Below are positions 9,134 to 63,261 of a stretch of 64,000 nt of DNA, piece by piece. Numbering within the stretch: position 1 is the first letter of the stretch; every line of letters begins with the position of its first letter. A model generated the notes under the pieces. That model saw nothing but the letters and a program-made list of their open reading frames with translations, did no database searches and was not told the origin of the DNA. Source of the stretch: Desulfuromonadales bacterium (GTDB lineage: Bacteria > Desulfobacterota > Desulfuromonadia > Desulfuromonadales > JACZKF01); assembly GCA_050485365.1 (NCBI GenBank), contig JBJHBH010000006.1, positions 6,985 to 70,984 on the forward strand. The letters are read 5' to 3'. The position numbers and the translations under genes are program-made.

Positions 9134-9643
9134 CTATTCTCGTTCGGACGATGAGAGTCGCTGCCCCTTGAAGCGGTTGCGGCCGAAGATGGCCAGAACC
9201 AAAAAGACGACGCCGATGCCGACCCCGATCTCGGCCAGAATCGATGCGGCGATCTTCGGGGATTCGCTTCCGCTGACTTTTTCAAGGAATGCGGCCAGGT
9301 CGGCCTTCTCCGCGGCGCTCAGAGGACGATCGACATACAGGGCCTCCATGCTGGGGAAGATGTCGAGGCTCGACAGGATGTCGACGACACCGTCCTCCCC
9401 GAAATCGTCCCACATCGCGGTCAGGTCCGGGCCATAATTCGCCCCGGCCGCCTTGCCGAGCCCCGCTCCGCCGACCCCATGACAGGCGAGGCACGGCGCC
9501 CCGCCCGCTTCAAAAGGGATCGCCCCGACGTACAGCGCCTCTCCACGGGCTGGATCCGCCGCCTTCGCCGCCGCCGGCAGCGCGGCGAGCAGAAGCACCA
9601 CAGCGAGCAGAACCGCCCAGCGCCATCGAACCAGTCTTTGCAT
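9134..9643 (-). CDS. monoheme c-type cytochrome with C-terminal TM anchor, first gene of the nar operon
   Basis: ORF 9134..9700. Start MQRLVRWRW at 9643, after GGGAGG. Signal peptide, a single CLACH motif and a C-terminal hydrophobic helix. Confidence 0.7.
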   Translation of the reverse strand: MQRLVRWRWAVLLAVVLLLAALPAAAKAADPARGEALYVGAIPFEAGGAPCLACHGVGGAGLGKAAGANYGPDLTAMWDDFGEDGVVDILSSLDIFPSMEALYVDRPLSAAEKADLAAFLEKVSGSESPKIAASILAEIGVGIGVVFLVLAIFGRNRFKGQRLSSSERE

Positions 9644-9729
9644 ACGCACCTCCCGCCTATTGCAGCATCGTTGCCGCGAACCTCGCCAATCCTTTTCCAA
9701 AGGTTTAGAACATTTTTTTACTCTTCGTT

Positions 9730-9743
9730 TTGATGCAAGTCAA
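9730..9743. promoter_or_regulatory. FNR/CRP-family box candidate upstream of the cytochrome c-nar operon
   Basis: TTGAT-GCAA-GTCAA has one mismatch to TTGAT-N4-ATCAA. It lies in the AT-rich spacer about 90 nt upstream of the 9643 start. Confidence 0.4.
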
Positions 9744-9882
9744 AAACGACGAATTATTTGAGACAATCTTTTCAATGAAATAGGGGGATTAAAAGGAGGA
9801 GAGCTGTAGAGGAAAGAAAATGCGAAAGGTGAGAAAAAACAGGGAATGAGATATTGCGAAAACATTGTTTTACGATATAGAA

Positions 9883-50699: not shown

Positions 50700-51068
50700 A
50701 ATATTGAAATCTATGGCTTTTTCGGCCACACCAATCGGTCATGCCCCCAATGTTGCCCCCACACTTGTTTGCTCCCATCCCCTCTGAGCATCTCTGAAAT
50801 TATTTTGCGCCACCCAGCATTGCTCCTTCCTTTCTATGCTCTCCAGCGTCGCACTCTCCAAGACAGTTAAATTTTTCACTTTTGCGTATTTTCAACCACT
50901 TGGAAAGAGTGTGTTAATTCTAATGTGTGATAAGTACCCCCCTTTACCCAAAACGCTAACCACCTGTAATTGCAGGGCTTTTTCATTGACACGCGGCGTT
51001 TGCAATGATACCTTTAATCAGAATCAAGGAACCCTCGGGCACTACTTTTTAAAGGAGGAGAACAAAAG

Positions 51069-51341
51069 ATGACAAAAGAGAAAAGGTTCAAGTTTTCCGA
51101 TCACCTCGACCGCTACCCGCCGATCATCGCCAGGGTCGATATTGCCAAACACTTCCCCTTTCTGACGCCAAAGACTATGGCGAACCTCGACTCTTTGCAG
51201 CAAGGTCCGCCTGAAGCAATCCGAGCGGGGGGGCGGACTCTATACCCAACCCCTGCCCTGCTCCGCTGGCTCGACTCTCGGAGCTGTCGCCGAGGCCGAG
51301 GCCGGCCTCGGAAAACCCCTCATCCGCCGGAGGCGGCATGA
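51069..51341 (+). CDS. small DNA-binding protein with C-terminal AT-hook, AlpA/excisionase-like
   Basis: 90 aa. ...LYPTPALLRWLD... followed by RRGRGRPRKTP (RGRP AT-hook core). RBS AAAGGAGGAG. Confidence 0.4.
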   Translation: MTKEKRFKFSDHLDRYPPIIARVDIAKHFPFLTPKTMANLDSLQQGPPEAIRAGGRTLYPTPALLRWLDSRSCRRGRGRPRKTPHPPEAA

Positions 51342-51503
51342 TGAGATCCGGGACAACAAAAGGGACAAAACGACGAAACCCTCGACGTTGGCGCGTCGAG
51401 GGTCCCAATTCTGTTCACTCAATCCCCAGGCCTCCGAAGCCTCCGCAGGAGAATGAGCTATGGATAAAACCGTATCAAATAGCGGCTTAAGAATCAAGCG
51501 GAA

Positions 51504-51539
51504 ACAACGATCACAACGATCACAACGATCACAACGATC
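51504..51539. repeat. 4 x 9-bp tandem repeat (ACAACGATC)
   Basis: Read directly. Lies about 100 nt upstream of the rep-like start. Confidence 0.9.
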
Positions 51540-51635
51540 GAATGCTTGCATTATGCTTGCTAAATGCAAGCAAAACACCGCCGACGATGCTTGCAAAATG
51601 ATTGCATCCTCCCTTTGCACTCTGGGGAGGGTATC

Positions 51636-52469
51636 ATGTCGATAGTCCGAGTTAAAAAAACATGCAGATTCACTGTGTTGGCCAATGACACGCTCCAGGA
51701 CTCTTCTTTGTCTCTGGAATCTTTAGGTCTGCTCGCGAGGCTCCTTTCCTACCCTGATGGATGGAATATTAGAATGGGGCACCTGATGCAAAAATGCAAA
51801 ATAGGAAGGGACAAGCTGCGGCGACTCATCGACGAGCTGCAAGCGGCGGGCTATTTGGAGAGAGACAAAGTCCAGGGACCTGGGGGCAAGTGGGAATGGC
51901 CTTGCACAATCTTCGAGAGTCCACAAGAAAGATTAAAAATTTTGCACGGGAAATCCGTCGACGGTTCACCCGTCGATGGTTCACCCGTCGACGGTGAACA
52001 CGTCGATATATTAAGTACCGATCTAGCAAGAACAGAATCAAAAAAGACCGAGAGAGAAACCACCAACCACCAAAACCAAACCGGGGACGGTGCCGGTGGT
52101 GGTGCGCTCTCTTTCTCAAACGTGAGTCTTAACCAAAGTCAAAGGCAAAGGCGTGGGGAAGCGTGGGCGGCACTCTCTGCGCAGGATAAGGACATGCTCC
52201 CCGACTACTTGAGGATGGGGATGAAGTTTGGAGGCAAGGCCGGCGGCCCGCCACGAAACCCTGCAGGGTGGGCCGTGGCGGCCGAGCGGCGAATCTTAGC
52301 CCAGGGGGGCCTCTCTCAGATCGACGATGCCCAATTTGGGGAATGGGTGAAAAGAGAGACTCGCGCGCTCGACAAAGAAGAAAAGACCGATTTTGCAGGT
52401 GAAGGTGATATGCCTTCCATCCGCTCCAAAGAAGACCGAGAGCGGTGGCGAAGAGAGCTTCTCGCCTGA
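51636..52469 (+). CDS. winged-helix replication-initiator-like protein (plasmid/phage Rep or DnaD-N-like HTH)
   Basis: Start MSIVRVKK after GGGGAGGG. FTVLANDTLQDSSLSLESLGLLARLLSYPDGWNIRMGHLMQKCKIGRDKLRRLIDELQAAGYLER pattern. Internal SPVDG repeats encoded by a 15-bp tandem repeat at 51955-52005. Confidence 0.5.
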   Translation: MSIVRVKKTCRFTVLANDTLQDSSLSLESLGLLARLLSYPDGWNIRMGHLMQKCKIGRDKLRRLIDELQAAGYLERDKVQGPGGKWEWPCTIFESPQERLKILHGKSVDGSPVDGSPVDGEHVDILSTDLARTESKKTERETTNHQNQTGDGAGGGALSFSNVSLNQSQRQRRGEAWAALSAQDKDMLPDYLRMGMKFGGKAGGPPRNPAGWAVAAERRILAQGGLSQIDDAQFGEWVKRETRALDKEEKTDFAGEGDMPSIRSKEDRERWRRELLA

Positions 52470-52475
52470 CCTATT

Positions 52476-52514
52476 AAATCCCGCCACCCCGGGTGGCGGG
52501 ATTTTCATCTTTTG
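52476..52514 (+). terminator. rho-independent terminator of the rep-like gene
   Basis: AAATCCCGCCACC-CCG-GGTGGCGGGATTT followed by TCATCTTTT. Confidence 0.8.
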
Positions 52515-52515
52515 C

Positions 52516-52623
52516 CCCTTCGACCCCTTCGACCCCTTCGACCCTTTCGACCCCTTCGACCCTTTCGACCCCTTCGACCCCTTCGACCCCTTCGACCCCT
52601 TCGACCCCTTCGACCCCTTCGAC
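52516..52623. repeat. tandem array 1: 12 x 9 bp, unit CCCTTCGAC
   Basis: Counted unit by unit. Two units are CCTTTCGAC. Confidence 0.97.
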
Positions 52624-52731
52624 CGTTTGGAGCGTTTAGAGCGTTTAGAGCGTTTAGAGCGTTTAGAGCGTTTAGAGCGTTTAGAGCGTTTAGAGCGTTT
52701 AGAGCGTTTAGAGCGTTTAGAGCGTTTAGAG
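52624..52731. repeat. tandem array 2: 12 x 9 bp, unit CGTTTAGAG
   Basis: Counted unit by unit. The first unit is CGTTTGGAG. Confidence 0.97.
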
Positions 52732-52839
52732 CTGTTGGAGCTGTTGGAGTTGTTGGAGCTGTTGGAGCTGTTGGAGCTGTTGGAGCTGTTGAAGCTGTTG
52801 GAGCTGTTGGAGCTGTTGGAGCTGTTGAAGCTGTTGGAG
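52732..52839. repeat. tandem array 3: 12 x 9 bp, unit CTGTTGGAG
   Basis: Counted unit by unit. Variants are TTGTTGGAG (1) and CTGTTGAAG (2). Confidence 0.97.
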
Positions 52840-53038
52840 CTGCTTTCTGTTGAACAAACTTTTTTGTTGTTTTATATCAAGACATCATCAGCGAAAATTA
52901 GAATAGATGTCAAGAACACAAAAACACTTGACGACGAAAATGCAGAGCGAGAGAATCGACATGTGATTATTTGCACACCCGACTCACCTACGGTGTCGTC
53001 AGGTGCTCAACCAAAAGACTGGAGAGCTAGACGGGATG

Positions 53039-53226
53039 CGCGTTTACAACGAAAACAGAAATGTTTACACGGATAGAATGTTTATCAGGACGTCTCAGCG
53101 TTTACACCGAAAACATCACTGTTTACATATGTAGTCGCTCTTGTAGTCGGTTTGTAGTTTGCCTTGTAGTCGGATTGTAAACAGAGAATGCAGGTTTACA
53201 AACGTAAACAAAAGGGAGGTTTACGA
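53039..53226. promoter_or_regulatory. putative oriT / RHH operator region
   Basis: About 9 GTTTACA/TGTAAAC motifs, including two roughly 30-bp direct repeats (53039-53069, 53098-53127). Five TGTAG(T) motifs are phased at 11-12 bp (53129-53183). The region sits directly upstream of the RHH-T4CP-relaxase operon. Confidence 0.55.
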
Positions 53227-53508
53227 ATGAAAACATCAGCAGTTGTGTCGGTCAGGATCGACCAGGAAACCCAAAGAAGAATTGTCCAGGCAGCAGAGAA
53301 GCAGGGCTCGACGGCGGCGGAGTTTATCCGCCAAGCAGTCCAGTCCGAGCTCGAGCGCCTCGGGGGCGGAGGGATCGAGGGCGCTCTCGCTGCTCTTGAA
53401 AACCGCATCTCCGATCGTCTCTCCCAAATCCCCCGCCTCGTGATCGAGGAAAATCTTGCCGTCGCCCGCCGCGCCCGGGAGGCCCAGGCTCAGCAGGGGA
53501 GGAATTAA
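53227..53508 (+). CDS. ribbon-helix-helix relaxosome accessory protein (TrwA/MobC-like position)
   Basis: Start MKTSAVVSVRIDQETQRRIVQAAEKQGSTAAEFIRQAV after GGGAGG. RHH pattern. Confidence 0.65.
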   Translation: MKTSAVVSVRIDQETQRRIVQAAEKQGSTAAEFIRQAVQSELERLGGGGIEGALAALENRISDRLSQIPRLVIEENLAVARRAREAQAQQGRN

Positions 53509-53510
53509 TC

Positions 53511-55685
53511 ATGGAAAAACGCCACGAAATCCCCTGCCCGACCCGGCCCCCCTGGCGAAACCCTGTAGAAATGATGTGGCTATTTGCCGGCGGCGCGCTC
53601 CTCGGCCTGACCCTTTGCCTTGCGGCCGCATGGGGGGCAGGTGTCCATCTAGACCTGATCAACACATCATGGCCCCCCTGGCGGCAGGTCGCCGCGGCGT
53701 GGAAAATCGGATGGTGGGCAATTTTTGCCCTCGTCGAACCAGGAAAATATGCCCAAAAATATGCGCAAATTTACGCGAATACGGGGGGGAATGTCAGCGG
53801 CTGGTTTGCGGTCGCCGGGCTCGGGGTCATCTCTGCTATCTCTCTTTCTGCGCTGAGCATGGCGTGGTTCTGCTCCACCCCTCCCGAAAACCCTGTCCAC
53901 GTCCGAGGTCGAAAAATTTCGACCGCTCCTGCAGATGCCCAAAAATCCTTGAATGGCTCCAGGAAGCGCAGCGGCGTCGGCCTGCCGGTCCATCCCGACG
54001 TAGAGATGAGTCAGGATCTGGAAAGTAAGCACATGATGATTGTGGGGGCGACGGGCGAGGGCAAAACCACCATCCTCTCCCCCCTGATCTGTGAAGCGAT
54101 CCGGAGAAATGACAAGTGCCTGATTTTTGATCCGAAGCCTGATTTTACAGAATGGATTCCGGGGCATGCCGTGATCCTTGCCCCATGGGACGAGCGCGGT
54201 GCGGCGTGGAATATGGGCGCGGACGTTTTGGACAAAGGGGACGCCGAGACGCTGGCGATGCGCTTCATCCCCGGCCAAGAGGTCCCCTGGGATCCTGGTG
54301 CTCGAATCATTCTCGAAGCGGCGATCATCGAATGCCAGCAGACCAAGGGGCAGAAATGGGGGCCGATCGACATCATCAAAATCCTAATCGACGATGATGA
54401 GATCATGAGAACGGTCAAAGAACACAAGCCGCTCGGCTCGCGCGTGGTCGCTGAGATGGCCAGCAAAACGACGCAATCGTTACTCATTACTCTCTCTGCA
54501 CAGCTCGGACAATTTGAAAATCTTGCCGAGTGGTCGCACGGAAAACCTAAATTCTCTTTTCGAAGATGGCTTCTCGGCCAGGCCGGAGAGGGGACTTGGG
54601 GGACGGTCATCATGGCGGCGAATGACCGGTATCGCTCACTCTCCTCGACCTACTGTCAATCAATAGTCTCTATCTGCACGTCGATCATCTGCAGCCCAGA
54701 TTTCCGCAAAAAAGAAAAGGTCTGGCTCTTCCTCGACGAGTTGCCGCAATTAGGCAAAATGCCTGAATTGTCGCAACTTTTAGCGGTCGGCAGGTCGAAA
54801 GGGTGCCGCGTCGTAATGGGCACACAAGACATTTCTCAAATCAGAGATATCTACGGCGTGCATCAGGCTCAAGCATGGGCAAGCATGTTCGGCACTTGGA
54901 TCATCGTGCGAATCAAGGGCACAGAATCGCCGAAATGGTTTAGCGAACTTCTCGGCGAGCGCGAAATCTGGCGCTGGAGCCCCGGAGCGCAGCGCGACGT
55001 GACGAGCGGAGCGGCGACGAGCGTGTCTGAGTCGTGGCGCAGGGAGCGCGAGCCCGTCATTTTTCCAGACGAATTCACCGATCTTATTGGCGCAGGAGAC
55101 GACGGAATCGACGGGATTTTCTATGTTCCCGGCAATGACACTGTTTATCTGCTGCATTGGGATTTCTTCACGCCTGAAAAGGTCCGCGAAAACCACATCC
55201 AACATACCCCCGCGCGCATCAGAGAAATCCTTAATGGTGGTGGAGTCGCCCCCCCGGCGGCGGCACAAGAAAAAGCGGCACCCGGAGGGAATCAAGAGAT
55301 CGAGCCCGAAGCCAGCGAACCGGAGGCCCAGGAAGTCCCGGAGGCCGAAGTTGAGCCGGAAAAAATCGAGGCCGGCGACCCAGACCCCGAAACCTTTTTT
55401 CCACCCGAGATTGACGAAATAGAAAATTCCGATGATGAAAGTGATGAAAACCACGATAACCAAAACCAAAGCGCAGACGCCCTTGCCGACGTCGGTTCAG
55501 AAATCGCCGGAGGCACTTTTGACGCAATAGTCGACCCCATGAGCGCGGCGGTTTCGGCCATAGAAATCGTCGAAAACATCGCGGGTTCCGGAAGTCATAA
55601 GGCCAACACCCCTTCCCTTGCTGAGGATGTTGCAGGCCTGCTGGTCGGCGGGGAGATCGAAGAACAGGAGACCGAAAAATGCTGA
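53511..55685 (+). CDS. type IV coupling protein (TraG/VirD4/TrwB family)
   Basis: N-terminal TM segments, Walker A GATGEGKT, Walker [13 protein letters not shown], and an acidic C-terminal tail. Confidence 0.85.
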
Positions 55686-58435
55686 GCATCGCAGCAATCC
55701 AAAACCTCAATTACTACAGCAATTTAGCGCAAGAAGACTACTACAACAACGGCGGCGAGCCCCCGGGGCGGTGGATGGGATCCGGAATTTCGGCGCTTGG
55801 CTTGTCCGGCGAGGTCGAATTAGAACAGTATCACCGGATTTTTGCAGGTTATCATCCTGAAACCGGCGAAAAACTTGTGCAAAGCGCTGGCAGCGAGAAC
55901 CACCGTCGGGGTTGGGATTTTTCATTCAGCGCGCCAAAGTCAGTTTCGACCATATGGAGCCAAAGCGACCCGGTGCAACGCTCCGCGATCCAAGCCGCGC
56001 AAGATAGAGCCGTCCAAGCCGCCCTCAAACACCTGGAGAGCGTAGCAATCACGCGACGCGGAAAAGGCGGGGCCGAGGCCGAGCGCCCGGCGGGCCTCGT
56101 GGCGGCGAGTTACGAGCACAGCACGAGCCGCGCCCAAGACCCTCAGCTTCACACACATCTCTTAATTTCAAATCTATGTGCCCGGAATGACGGTACTTTC
56201 GGCACCCTCGAAACGAAAGAGATGTTTAGTCACAAAATGGCGGCGGGGGCCATTTTCCGCGCCCAACTCGCCGCCGAGCTCCAGGCGCTCGGCTATAAAA
56301 TCGAGCGTGACGGCGACTCTTTCCGAATCGCCGGCTCTCCCCGAGAGCTCGAAAAGGAATTTTCGAAGAGGCGCGAAGAGATCGAAAAAAGTCTTGCAGA
56401 ATCGGGACATACCGGAGCGAAGGCAAGCGAAATAGCTGCGCTCGATTCCAGGTCGAAAAAAGAGGCCCGCCCGCGCTCAGAACTGTTTGCCGAATGGCAG
56501 GACACGGGCCGCGAACACGGATATGACCATGAATCGGTTTTGAGTGCAGAAATCGACCCGGAAAAAGCCCCTGCATTCCCTCCCATCGAGGACCTTCTCT
56601 ATAAATTGACCGAGCGCGAATCAACATTCCGCGAGGCCGATATCTGGAAACTCGTGGCCGTTGAAGCGCAGGGGGTCATGAATGCCGAGCAGATCCGCGC
56701 CCAGGTCGAACAGCTCCTCGACTCTCCGGAACTCATCAGACTCGAAAAGCCCCTTTCCGAAGCCACCACCCCCCGCCCCCCGGAGGTCCGTTGGTCCACC
56801 CGGGAAATGGTCCGAATCGAGAAAAACATGATCGAAACCGCCGCCACCCTGGCCGGGCAGCCCTCCCATCAGGTCAGCGAATCAGCGATGGAAGCCGCGC
56901 GGGCGGGGCGGACGCTGAGCGAGCAGCAGGACCAAGCCCTGCAGCACATCACCGCCCCGGGAGGCGCCGCCGTCCTGGTCGGCATGGCGGGAGCGGGAAA
57001 AAGTTATTTGTTGGGCGCAGCCCGGGAGGCTTGGGAAAAATCGGGATACGAGGTCAGGGGCGCGGCGCTGGCCGGGAAAGCCGCGAGCGGTCTACAGATC
57101 GAAAGCGGGATAAAAAGCCAGACGATTCATTCTCTTCTGCGCGAAATCGAAGAAGGGAAAACGACCCTAACCCCCAAAACGATATTGGTGATCGACGAGG
57201 CCGGAATGGTAGGCAGTCGTCAAACGGCGAAACTACTGGAACTGACGCAAAAATCGGGCGCGAAACTCGTCCTCGTCGGAGATGATAAACAGCTGCAGCC
57301 AGTCGATGCCGGAGGCAGTTTTAAGGCGATCTCGAACGAAATCGGGCACTTCGAGCTCACAGAAATCCGGCGTCAGAAAGAAGCTTGGGCGGTCAATACC
57401 GTGCATCAATTTGCGCGGGGCGAAGCAGCCGCGGCGCTCACGGAGTATCACGAGCGGGGACTTCTTCATATCGCGGAAAACCGCGATGGCGCGATAAAAG
57501 ACCTTATTGAGACTTGGAACAATCAAGCCGGCTGTTCAAGCCCAGCAGAGCATCTAATCTTAGGCTCAACGCGCGTCGAGGTCGCGCAACTGAACGACCT
57601 CGCACGCGAAAAAATGTGAGAAAATGGGCTCTTCGGCGCAAAGTGCGAAGTCTCGACAGAGTCCCACGGCAAACTTGAGTTTGCCGAAGGCGATCGAATC
57701 CTTTTCGGTCGGAATTCCAAACAAGTCAATGTCGAAAACGGTGTGCTCGGCACCGTGACGCGGATTTTACCATCACGCGACGGCAAAGGCATGCGGCTCA
57801 CGGTCAAAACGGATGACGGTCGTTCAGTCCAATTCGACAGCGAGAAATACGGCCATATTTCGCACGGTTATGCCGTCACAACTCACAAATCACAGGGCGT
57901 TTCGGTGAAGTGCGCGTATGTTTTAGGCGGGGGCAGCATGGCGTCTAGGGAAATGACATATGTGCAAATGTCGCGATTTAAAGAGGTGGCGCGACTCTTT
58001 CTCAACAAAAAAGAAGTCGAACAATCGCTGAAATCCGCCGCCGCAGCGGCCGGCCTCGACACCATCCCCCCAACCGAAAAAATGATCAAATTCGCCGAAT
58101 CCATCAGCGAATCAGAAGGTTACCCCCTGCCGAAGGGCTATCAAGAAGACTTCTGGGCTTGCCGATCTTATCTCGACAAATATTCAGAGATTTACCTTGG
58201 CGGAAAGAATGATACAAAAACGATCAACGGAGATAAAATCGAGCCTCCAGAAGTCTTCACGCAGATCGAACAAGCAATAAAACAGATGGAAAAAGCAAAA
58301 CAAAAAGAGACTACGCTCGCCTATAAAACTGCTGAACAACAAAAGAATGTTAGTAATACAATGCACGATACCAAACACACTATTGTGCATCAAAACATAA
58401 ATCAACTTGAACTAGAATTAGAGCTTGAAATGTGA
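55679..58435 (+). pseudogene. MOBF (TrwC/TraA-type) relaxase-helicase interrupted by one in-frame TGA at 57617-57619
   Basis: YY...EDYY...GEPPGRWMG relaxase N-terminus, [19 protein letters not shown] His triad, and helicase Walker A GMAGAGKS. Track ORF 57743..58435 (GYAVTTHKSQG motif) is in the same frame, and the codons between them are open and homologous-looking (EFAEGDRILFGRN). Confidence 0.85.
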
Positions 58436-61808: not shown

Positions 61809-61894
61809 CCGGGTTCCCTCCCTTCCCCTCTCCCCGGCTGCTGCGCTTCGCTGGCATCCCGGGAGGGGTCCCCGGGTCGGCGCCTCGTGGCGCC
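61809..61894. repeat. left copy of the structured inverted repeat
   Basis: CCGGGTTCCCTCCCTTCCCCTCTCCCCGG (29 nt), a variable stretch, GAGGGGTCCCCGGGTCGGCG (20 nt), and hairpin GGCGCC-TCGT-GGCGCC. Confidence 0.9.
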
Positions 61895-62210
61895 CGGCTC
61901 AAGCTAAGGTGTCGGAGTTTTGGGGCTTTTTTTAGACCCGGTTGTTGAGAGAGGTGGTTGATTCGGCCTCGGCGCCTGGAGTGGAGCGACGGCGGAGGGC
62001 CGGGCGGTCTGGTTCCGGGGGAGGATTTTCTAATGTTCTCGCTTTCCATCCGCATACACACTTAAAAACGGACAGACCGCCGTCACCTGAATGATAGCAT
62101 ATACCGTGCCAAAAACAGACAGCAGGCCGTCACTTTATATAGACATCTATAGACATTGCATTTTAAACTGCATACATCATAAAAAACAGACAGCATAGCA
62201 TAATAAAAAG

Positions 62211-63103: not shown

Positions 63104-63173
63104 CCTTTCCCTTTCCTTCCCCACGCCTTGGATCTAAAGGCCGAAACCTGCACCGCCGCAGCCAGAGCCGAAG

Positions 63174-63261
63174 GGCGGCACGGGCCGCCGACCCGGGGAC
63201 CCCTCGCCGGTCCGCCGCGCAGCCAGGCGGAACCGGGGAGAGGGGAAGGGAGGGAACCCGG
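63174..63261. repeat. right copy of the structured inverted repeat (reverse orientation)
   Basis: Contains the exact reverse complements of the 20-nt and 29-nt blocks of the left copy. The plus strand reads GGGGAGAGGGGAAGGGAGGG. Confidence 0.9.

Follow-up and report, generated by a model that had tools for sequence, protein, structure and literature searches.

A block of 324 bp at positions 52516-52839 of the 64-kb stretch of Desulfuromonadales DNA analysed here (the window) is made up of three abutting tandem arrays, each of twelve 9-bp units, and lies between the gene of a Rep-like winged-helix protein and the putative origin of transfer (oriT) of an integrated conjugative element. The best-supported reading, in which we place moderate confidence, is that the block is a young, non-coding minisatellite that was generated by slippage and is specific to this lineage. 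The arrays are the strongest of several perfect tandem repeats packed into 1.4 kb about rep: the region 51.5-52.85 kb holds a 4 x 9-bp array, a 3.5 x 15-bp repeat and the three arrays, and in the remaining 60 kb Tandem Repeats Finder (TRF) scores do not exceed 51.

When the block was cut into 9-mers, three sub-blocks were obtained with no spacer between them and with a continuous 9-bp phase, which confirmed the layout of three abutting 12 x 9-bp arrays described in an initial annotation of this DNA (Table 1). The block consensus is matched exactly by 30 of the 36 units; the six variant units, of four kinds, replace the five counted in that annotation. Arrays 1, 2 and 3 received TRF scores of 206, 211 and 207, and no score above 76 was found in the rest of the window, where repeated k-mers of at least 31 bases were likewise lacking, all of them being confined to the block. 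Perfect period-9 runs span 30 and 61 bp in array 1, 103 bp in array 2 (52630-52732) and 21, 41 and 35 bp in array 3. A CTG directly follows unit 12 of array 3, and TRF stretches that array to 52842. Unit 1 of array 2 bears the G found at position 6 of array 3, and the other block borders show no intermediate units. Spacerless, near-identical head-to-tail units of this kind (30/36 exact; TRF 206-211) are what is expected of a minisatellite.

Columns 1, 4, 5, 7 and 8 are identical among the three unit consensuses. For three random 9-mers in fixed phase, at least five invariant columns have a probability of 1.2e-4, and because five shared columns are so improbable by chance, the three units are related. 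The skeleton C-N-N-T-T-N-G-A-S, under which the initial annotation had united them, is thus real at this locus, and the units are kin versions of one 9-mer. The differences between blocks sit at columns 2, 3, 6 and 9, and these same columns are invariant inside the blocks. Such within-block invariance despite between-block change argues for recent amplification rather than for purifying selection, and it is the strongest argument for the recent expansion that we infer. As a family signature the skeleton was useless: searches with five copies of CNNTTNGAS gave at least 120 viral contigs among the matches listed, mostly with coding repeats (collagen-like or (LQQ/LER)n linkers).

In the proposed scheme, one short 9-bp seed array, situated between the Rep-like gene's terminator and the oriT core, would have been lengthened by unequal exchange or by slippage during replication, and mutant units would then have been amplified locally into three homogeneous blocks. 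The array would be dispensable for core transfer or replication functions; its effect, if any, would be secondary: it places 324 bp of DNA without structure where the leading region begins, and it may soak up the ribbon-helix-helix (RHH) protein encoded nearby. The degenerate unit CTGTTGAAC, found just past array 3, fits this scheme: it may have seeded the array or be what is left of a terminal unit. Further support for a minisatellite comes from the clustering of other perfect repeats about rep. The sole hint of copy-number polymorphism comes from the neighbouring 4 x 9-bp array at 51504 and not from the block: an independently assembled contig, L001, starts at 51510, where the right flank of that 36-bp array first anchors a 31-mer, and this start would imply reads with more than four ACAACGATC units, that is, copy-number heterogeneity at 51504. 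Furthermore, the relaxase gene contains a single in-frame TGA (57617-57619; ...LAREKM*ENGLFG...), after which the same frame runs on into the helicase C-terminus. This TGA could have arisen by nonsense mutation or sequencing error, or could be recoded; an in-frame stop in the relaxase means that the element may be decaying, with neutral expansions tolerated.

The block is absent from the equivalent site in relatives, as expected for a lineage-specific expansion. A nucleotide search of window positions 50800-56000 against 72,556 plasmids gave no match, and a protein search of plasmids with the type IV coupling protein (T4CP) gave TraD-like matches at 24-30% only, with no characterised close relative. 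The closest T4CP proteins are those of L003 (47% identity) and L004 (40%). In L003, only 190 bp upstream of the RHH gene are present before the contig ends. Among relatives covered in full, the nearest is L004/L005, a Geopsychrobacteraceae chromosome with the same oriT core and the same RHH-T4CP-TrwC order; its RHH protein is homologous to that of the window (E = 1e-5), and the 470-bp gap upstream of this operon in L004 contains no tandem array. The two genes to the left of that gap are not homologous to those of the window, which places the arrays at a module junction. A scan with an alignment of 12 T4CP sequences, carried out on species-representative genomes, yielded 80 further loci with related T4CP genes (25-40% identity) where a single T4CP query had found none; no comparable intergenic block was present in these 80 loci, and their few period-6, -9 or -12 repeats are coding linkers. 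The comparison with related elements that the initial annotation had called for thus gave 82 loci without an array, all of them distant (at most 47% T4CP identity). In L004, the DNA ahead of the RHH gene (9440-9760) contains GCTGCC(A) repeats at irregular spacing, a field comparable to the GTTTACA field of the window; from these sequences, the accessory-protein motif appears to be private to each element.

The units themselves occur elsewhere in other contexts. Three copies of CGTTTAGAG were found in eight metagenome contigs with unrelated flanks. In L205, intergenic blocks consist of four CGTTTAGAG units, a single CGTTTAGAT, three GGTTTAGAT and two GGATTAGAT, and L208/L210, L206/L207 and L212 likewise contain abutting blocks of related 9-mers. 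The blocks of this SGTTTRGAK family (L205, L206/L207, L208, L210 and L212) lie in intergenic DNA beside gene starts; in L210 (987-2969; 161-300), SGTTTRGAK units are also found in frame within an exosortase-like open reading frame (ORF), as DPN/DLN/ALN repeats. The host of these contigs seems to have pervasive 9-bp repeat activity. In phage DNA methyltransferases with a DPPY motif, CTGTTGGAG and CCGTTCGAG, on the opposite strand, encode (LQQ/LER/LEQ)n linkers (Table 1). Block-wise 9-bp repeats are therefore a recurring outcome of repeat dynamics, of which the window's case is larger, purer and more regular, and the metagenome contigs with abutting 9-mer blocks fit an origin of the block by local amplification. 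Within the element, neither the units of arrays 1 and 3 nor ACAACGATC are enriched elsewhere. A possible proto-repeat in the oriT region of L004, CCGTTGGAGCTGTCGGGG, matches array 3 at 15 of 18 positions; with a background of 4/200, and with four units and two loci compared, this match was not significant.

Several points weigh against a minisatellite. Slippage predicts no equal copy number in three blocks, and arrays 1 and 3 are apparently equal. The 12/12/12 equality follows neither from slippage nor from the assembler behaviour reconstructed below, and we take it as a coincidence or as a partly unverified feature of the assembly; it is the sole feature that no ordinary process predicts, and it keeps the finding moderately interesting. 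The 108-bp blocks are sharply bounded and, save for unit 1 of array 2, have no mixed border units. The units differ at the same four positions: the three differences between arrays 2 and 3 all fall among the four between arrays 1 and 2, which has a chance of ~5% and suggests a constraint on the skeleton. In addition, the leading side of oriT in a MOBF-type element has a functional precedent in the stbDR repeats of plasmid R388, and array 2, read in the register GCGTTTAGA, is 8/9 identical to the motif GCGTTTACA, which occurs twice (53040 and 53098) in the repeat field that precedes the RHH gene (estimated chance, 0.02-0.04). Lastly, the T4CPs of the nearest relatives are just 40-47% identical to that of the window, so that the lack of an array there says little about recent function.

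The position of the block relative to oriT bears on these functional possibilities. The 15-mer of the conserved oriT core is found unchanged in L004/L005, in the corresponding gap that precedes the RHH gene, and in L011, L060 and L017 CACACCCGAC-like motifs precede the T4CP gene. The complement of the core, GGTGAGTCGGGTGT/GCAAAT, resembles the nic region of F, GGGGTGT/GGTGCTTT (F nic, GGGGTGT/GG; F oriT sequence from PMC3074121), the slash marking nic. By this likeness, a putative nic would lie on the minus strand between 52975 and 52974. In R388, the genes across oriT from the DNA transfer and replication (Dtr) operon enter the recipient first (PMC3098194). Given the gene order and the likeness to F nic, the arrays would lie on the leading side: the minus strand would be transferred leftwards from ~52974, and the arrays would make up nucleotides 135-460 of the entering DNA. 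They are separated from the RHH gene by ~390 bp, which include a segment of 33% GC (52850-52949). As noted in the initial annotation, the block comes directly after the terminator of the Rep-like gene and is followed by the GTTTACA/TGTAG field; the terminator is a hairpin with a 13-bp stem and a T-run, and the field begins at ~53040. This field, GTTTACA/TGTAGTCGG, probably comprises relaxosome-accessory and operator sites.

The main rival explanation, a tentative one, is that the block is a multivalent protein-loading platform, that is, a series of contiguous sites that would each take one dimer per 9 bp of an element-encoded DNA-binding protein. The adjacent RHH protein in the TrwA position, whose gene is 390 bp away, would be the most plausible binder, with an AT-hook/AlpA-like protein as an alternative. 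The resulting filament beside oriT might serve as a centromere-like or chromosome-tethering site of the excised element, might titrate the RHH repressor, or might separate the leftward promoter from the rep terminator as a roadblock. Such an arrangement has parallels: on pCXC100, direct repeats of 9 bp without spacers are bound cooperatively by RHH dimers, one every 9 bp (PMC3074162), and the 9-bp repeat sets beside oriT of R388, on the first-entering side, are bound by StbA and are needed for stability and for the control of conjugation (PMC3098194). The five-column skeleton common to the blocks and the 8/9 match of array 2 to the local GCGTTTACA motif are also in line with it, and since the element has an initiator-like protein of its own, its excised form may replicate and need segregation. 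However, no partition ATPase (ParA, ParM or StbB-like) was found in Pfam, PHROG and NCBIfam scans of the element ORFs inside the window, part of the element lying beyond it. Three different units would demand either a very tolerant protein or three proteins, and the units do not recur at other promoters of the element, unlike the sites of the StbA, omega and ParG regulons. The array is missing from related elements whose RHH protein is homologous, the L004 oriT match to array 3 fails after multiple testing, and the known centromere repeats are degenerate about their consensus, whereas the blocks here are near-perfect inside.

It is rather unlikely that the copy numbers are partly a product of the assembly. 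The repeats would then be real, but 12/12/12 would not be the true state of the molecule or population, array 2 having collapsed to the minimum of a de Bruijn graph or the population being heterogeneous; this would be compatible with a minisatellite as well as with a protein-loading platform. The independent assembly, Logan contig L001 (run SRR31311414, k=31, 1,048 bp), is 100% identical to window positions 51510-52557, and the first 42 nt of array 1 are thus reproduced. It ends one base short of the end of the first repeated 31-mer (52528-52558), which results from the variant pattern N-N-N-V-N-V of array 1 (units 4 and 6 variant). Because L001 breaks at the predicted 31-mer, the fine structure of the left end was reproduced by a separate assembly of raw reads. 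The possibility of an assembly artefact, raised in the initial annotation, is thereby countered for the left end, and the count of array 2 is the least certain.

Variants fix the copy number of array 3 at any k of at least 55 and link array 1 given reads of at least 63 nt, so that 12 should be the genuine count in these two arrays. The count of array 2 hinges on reads of at least 105 nt. The longest repeated substring in the window is 94 bp, and no k-mer of length 95 or above recurs; at k of 95-103, a graph outputs 12 array-2 units for any true count of at least 12 (at k=99, for example, 99-107 bp are permitted and the phase sets 103), and the 103-bp run of array 2 is the output expected from such a graph for a longer array. 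In keeping with a role of the assembler, breaks in the k=31 assembly fall at both the 51504 array and the 324-bp block, and a study of Borg elements reports frequent assembler errors in tandem-repeat regions (PMC9879509). On the other hand, the 103-bp run can be spanned by ordinary 150-nt reads. De Bruijn collapse as the cause of the equal lengths fits array 2 alone (k ~99) and is excluded by the variants for arrays 1 (k >=63) and 3 (k >=55). Collectively, the counts of 12 in arrays 1 and 3 are probably true, and that of array 2 is a lower bound.

Also unlikely is a functional role of the block as a cis element in three parts within the leading region, that is, as a new oriT-adjacent module for establishment, segregation or insulation of integrative conjugative elements. 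Each of the three 12-site sub-arrays, which differ in sequence but have the five-base skeleton in common, would then load a set number of dimers, or the single strand would form an unstructured platform followed by three G-quadruplex units, and the equality of the 108-bp blocks would be kept by selection. The putative transferred strand (52505-52975) folds worse than 100 of 100 shuffled sequences (z = +2.9), which excludes a hairpin structure of the single-strand promoter or priming type. On the same strand, the complement of array 1, (GTCGAAGGG)n, has 12 tracts of three or four G with loops of 5-6 nt and contains three canonical quadruplex motifs (G3+N1-7 x4). No Rfam family was found over the block at E <=1, and the unique spacers of CRISPR arrays are lacking, the units being directly abutted. 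There is so far no evidence that the block represents a novel type of origin or centromere.

It is very unlikely that the Rep-like protein uses the block as a replication origin or for copy control by iterons, in the manner of the second iteron set of P1 or F and with the AT-rich segment 52850-52950 alongside. Iteron sets flanking rep are classical in P1 and F, and the arrays do stand directly downstream of an initiator-like gene, next to a 33%-GC segment and with a second perfect 9-bp array upstream of rep. Nevertheless, the units are 9 bp long, unspaced and of three consensuses, as against iterons of 17-22 bp in helical phase, and the upstream ACAACGATC unit is unrelated to those downstream. 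No DnaA box was found in the block or its flanks; the sole 8/9 match of the element is at 51459, upstream of rep. There are also better origin candidates, at 51459-51605 and 51955-52075. The former combines the DnaA-box match (51459-51467) with the four ACAACGATC units and ATGCTTGCA/GCAAGC palindromic repeats and, by its sequence, looks like an origin or operator. The latter consists of 15-bp repeats inside the Rep-like gene, followed by an A-rich stretch; its layout recalls the lambda origin within gene O, an analogy that also leans on the O-like PHROG match of the protein. The absence of the block from relatives, the lack of a partition ATPase among the ORFs scanned, these better origins and a purity that reflects recent amplification weaken a reading as iterons or as a centromere.

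A coding role for the block is unlikely, and it is hardly credible that it encodes a repeat peptide, whether (PFD)12(RLE)12(LLE)12, a Rep read-through product (PLR)12(AFR)12(AVG)12 or, on the minus strand, (LQQ)12. In favour of coding, the unit length is a multiple of 3, and block-to-block differences fall at positions 3, 6 and 9 plus 2. Of the four kinds of variant, three are silent when read as PFD/RLE/LLE, and the two of array 3 are silent when read as LQQ on the minus strand. Elsewhere, phage methyltransferases and an exosortase-like protein use these 9-mers to encode (LQQ/LER)n and (DPN/ALN)n, respectively. However, no one frame explains all silent changes (arrays 1 and 2 point to plus frame 1, array 3 to the minus-strand LQQ frame), and the synonymous excess is not significant (estimated P ~0.2 for transitions). 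The initial annotation had described all frames as open, and we find four of six: one plus frame has 13 stops (a TAG in each consensus array-2 unit and a TGA in two CTGTTGAAG units), and one minus frame has 11 (TAA in array 2). The sole start of the PFD/RLE/LLE frame is a TTG within rep, upstream of the strong terminator and without a ribosome-binding site. The PLR/AFR/AVG frame, which follows the Rep TGA, is open to 52853 and has a TTG at 52512, again without a ribosome-binding site, and the minus-strand (LQQ)12 ORF of 43 aa is closed by a TAA in array 2. No protein similar to the PFD/RLE/LLE ORF was found among 5.8 billion clusters, and both repeat ORFs lack an exact match in a collection of 15 billion proteins. 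A credible start, a ribosome-binding site and homologous non-repeat sequence, as expected of a true amino-acid tandem repeat, are thus lacking, and with no credible start past the terminator the view of the initial annotation that the block is non-coding is upheld.

Table 1. Coordinates of the arrays and of surrounding features (window positions unless another contig is named)
Feature	Position	Strand	Description
AT-hook protein	51069-51341		90 aa; C-terminal RGRGRPRK
4 x ACAACGATC perfect 9-bp array	51504-51539	none	Upstream of Rep-like gene, then ATGCTTGCA repeats; iteron/operator candidate
Rep-like winged-helix protein	51636-52469	+	277 aa from ATG 51636; longest ORF from 51564
15-bp x 3.5 repeat	51955-52006	+	Within Rep-like gene; 10-bp palindrome CCGTCGACGG; encodes SPVDG repeats; internal origin candidate
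Intrinsic-terminator-like hairpin	52476-52514	+	13 pairs, 8 of them G-C, then T-run; 14-nt arms 100% complementary; ends 2 nt before array 1
Array 1	52516-52623	none	12 x CCCTTCGAC; units 4 and 6 are CCTTTCGAC
Array 2	52624-52731	none	12 x CGTTTAGAG; unit 1 is CGTTTGGAG
Array 3	52732-52839	none	12 x CTGTTGGAG; unit 3 is TTGTTGGAG, units 7 and 11 are CTGTTGAAG
Block flanks			Left GGGATTTTCATCTTTTGCCCC; right GAGCTGCTTTCTGTTGAACAAAC
Degenerate unit CTGTTGAAC	52847-52855	none	7 nt past array 3; direct reading
Promoter-like site	52884-52913	-	TTGACA-18-GATGAT, 10/12; directed left into the arrays; consensus match only
Promoter-like site	52928-52956	+	TTGACG-17-GAGAAT; directed right to oriT and RHH operon; in 33%-GC spacer
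Conserved oriT core CACACCCGACTCACC	52974-52988	-	15-mer shared with L004/L005
Putative nic-bearing sequence			GGTGAGTCGGGTGTGCAAAT
GTTTACA and TGTAGTCGG repeat field	53040-53235	none	Upstream of RHH gene
RHH protein, TrwA/NikA position	53227-53508	+	RHH_1 1.6e-5, NikA-like 5e-4; candidate array binder
Type IV coupling protein (TrwB/TraD type)	53511-55685	+	TrwB_AAD_bind 3e-68
TrwC-type (MOBF) relaxase-helicase	55679-58435	+	TrwC 6e-86, AAA_30 1e-55; C-terminal piece matches TraA_Ti 636-723
Methyltransferase linker loci	L088 2512-3426 (- strand numbering); L120 2-508; L183 1596-2582		Phage DNA methyltransferases with 9-bp coding repeats

The conjugative module is part of an integrated conjugative element that reaches past the window end. 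Chromosomal genes (nitrate-reductase-like, cytochrome c552, sigma-54 activator and methyl-accepting chemotaxis protein) occupy 1-30 kb, and cargo-like genes with a resolvase occupy 31-50 kb; G+C falls from ~50.5 kb, where the module begins. No tRNA genes were found within the whole window. Directly before the drop in G+C, the ORF at 50223-50492 matches just the N-terminal transmembrane part of YetF (89 aa), and the left end of the integrated element may lie there. Downstream of the relaxase is a gene for a DotA/TraY type IVB protein, and just past it inverted-repeat arms (61809-61895 and 63173-63261) bound a 1.3-kb segment; one pair of arms is perfect over 29 nt and the adjacent pair is 78% identical over 51 nt. 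This segment may be invertible, or may be an insertion with terminal inverted repeats.

The Rep-like protein matches HTH_36 (4e-5) and the PHROG replication-initiation, O-like and DnaD-like families (1e-15 to 8e-6). Its 277-aa form (P0001) is the same protein in NCBI and Logan and is encoded on L001; in exact look-ups of the longest Rep ORF, two start variants of the RHH protein and the T4CP, no record was returned, the 277-aa Rep alone being found. The only other clear relative is P0002 (39% identity), encoded at 5730-6128 of L002, a contig of 51 kb with a phage- or plasmid-like character, on which genes for a DdrB-family protein and two DNA methyltransferases are also found. A sequence search of the PDB with the RHH and Rep-like proteins gave only generic RHH (PutA, RelB) and winged-helix matches, all with E >0.2.

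The initial annotation could match the tripartite, equal-copy, 9-bp design to no described origin, centromere or oriT. A 9-bp tandem design as such does have precedents, in pCXC100 and in the R388 stbDRs; it is only for the tripartite, equal-copy, near-perfect layout that we found none. The heptads of omega (pSM19035) and the parC/parH arrays of ParR and ParG are short, unspaced or closely spaced repeats that serve RHH proteins as both operator and centromere. They differ from the block in having units of 7, 4+4 or 10-11 bp, in their mixed orientation and degeneracy, and in lying, in the known cases, always beside a partition operon. The period of the block (9 bp, 36 units) falls within the 7-11 bp of RHH centromeres; its location departs from theirs, since its neighbours are the convergent Rep-like gene and, 390 bp away, the RHH-T4CP-relaxase operon. 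A partition operon, a single consensus, dispersed operator copies and conservation, which are the marks of a partition-type site, are lacking here.

The type Ib centromere of pCXC100 (Leifsonia xyli) is also made of uninterrupted 9-bp direct repeats, and RHH ParB dimers bind it cooperatively with binding centres 9 bp apart (PMC3074162); in the window, an RHH gene is found near the arrays. In contrast to the 36 near-perfect units of three consensuses described here, it has nine degenerate repeats of one consensus, AGNTGGAAA, and lies in a ParA/ParB operon; no ParA was found here. The block shares with R388 (IncW, MOBF) the presence of 9-bp direct-repeat sets beside a TrwC-type oriT, on what would here be the first-entering side, and the Dtr gene order RHH/TrwA, T4CP, TrwC. 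The stbDRs are two sets of five 9-bp repeats with 2-bp spacers, an 11-bp period and one consensus (PMC3098194). Unlike the block, they overlap the divergent stbABC promoter, and their motif occurs at other promoters; here there is no gene past the arrays except the 43-aa repeat ORF, and no dispersed copies. If the block binds protein, it would extend these two known 9-bp designs to a 36-site, three-specificity array at the start of recipient-entering DNA, and would give a direct handle on post-transfer stabilisation or insulation of an integrative element.

The 9-bp coding repeats of the phage methyltransferase linkers and of the exosortase-like protein of L210 share 9-mers with the block (CTGTTGGAG, CCGTTCGAG and CGTTTAGAG, mixed in tandem blocks); they lie in long recognisable ORFs, whereas the block has none. 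A further likeness is to the tandem repeats of Borgs and to bacterial variable-number tandem repeats, which are also near-perfect, head-to-tail, lineage-specific, confined to the mobile element, flanked by a partial unit and difficult for assemblers. Borg repeats, which are perfect, recent and fast-evolving, are the nearest parallel in general behaviour. The study of Borgs describes flanking partial repeats as possible seeds, and just 14-38% of their intergenic repeat units are divisible by 3 (PMC9879509). The Borg loci differ in being A-rich arrays of a single unit on archaeal linear elements, with no tripartite equal-copy block described. If the block is a minisatellite, as we favour, it would be a clean bacterial case of the quick local birth of perfect repeats in a mobile element, in which such arrays coincide with assembly breaks and which has so far been known mainly from Borgs and from the contingency loci of pathogens.

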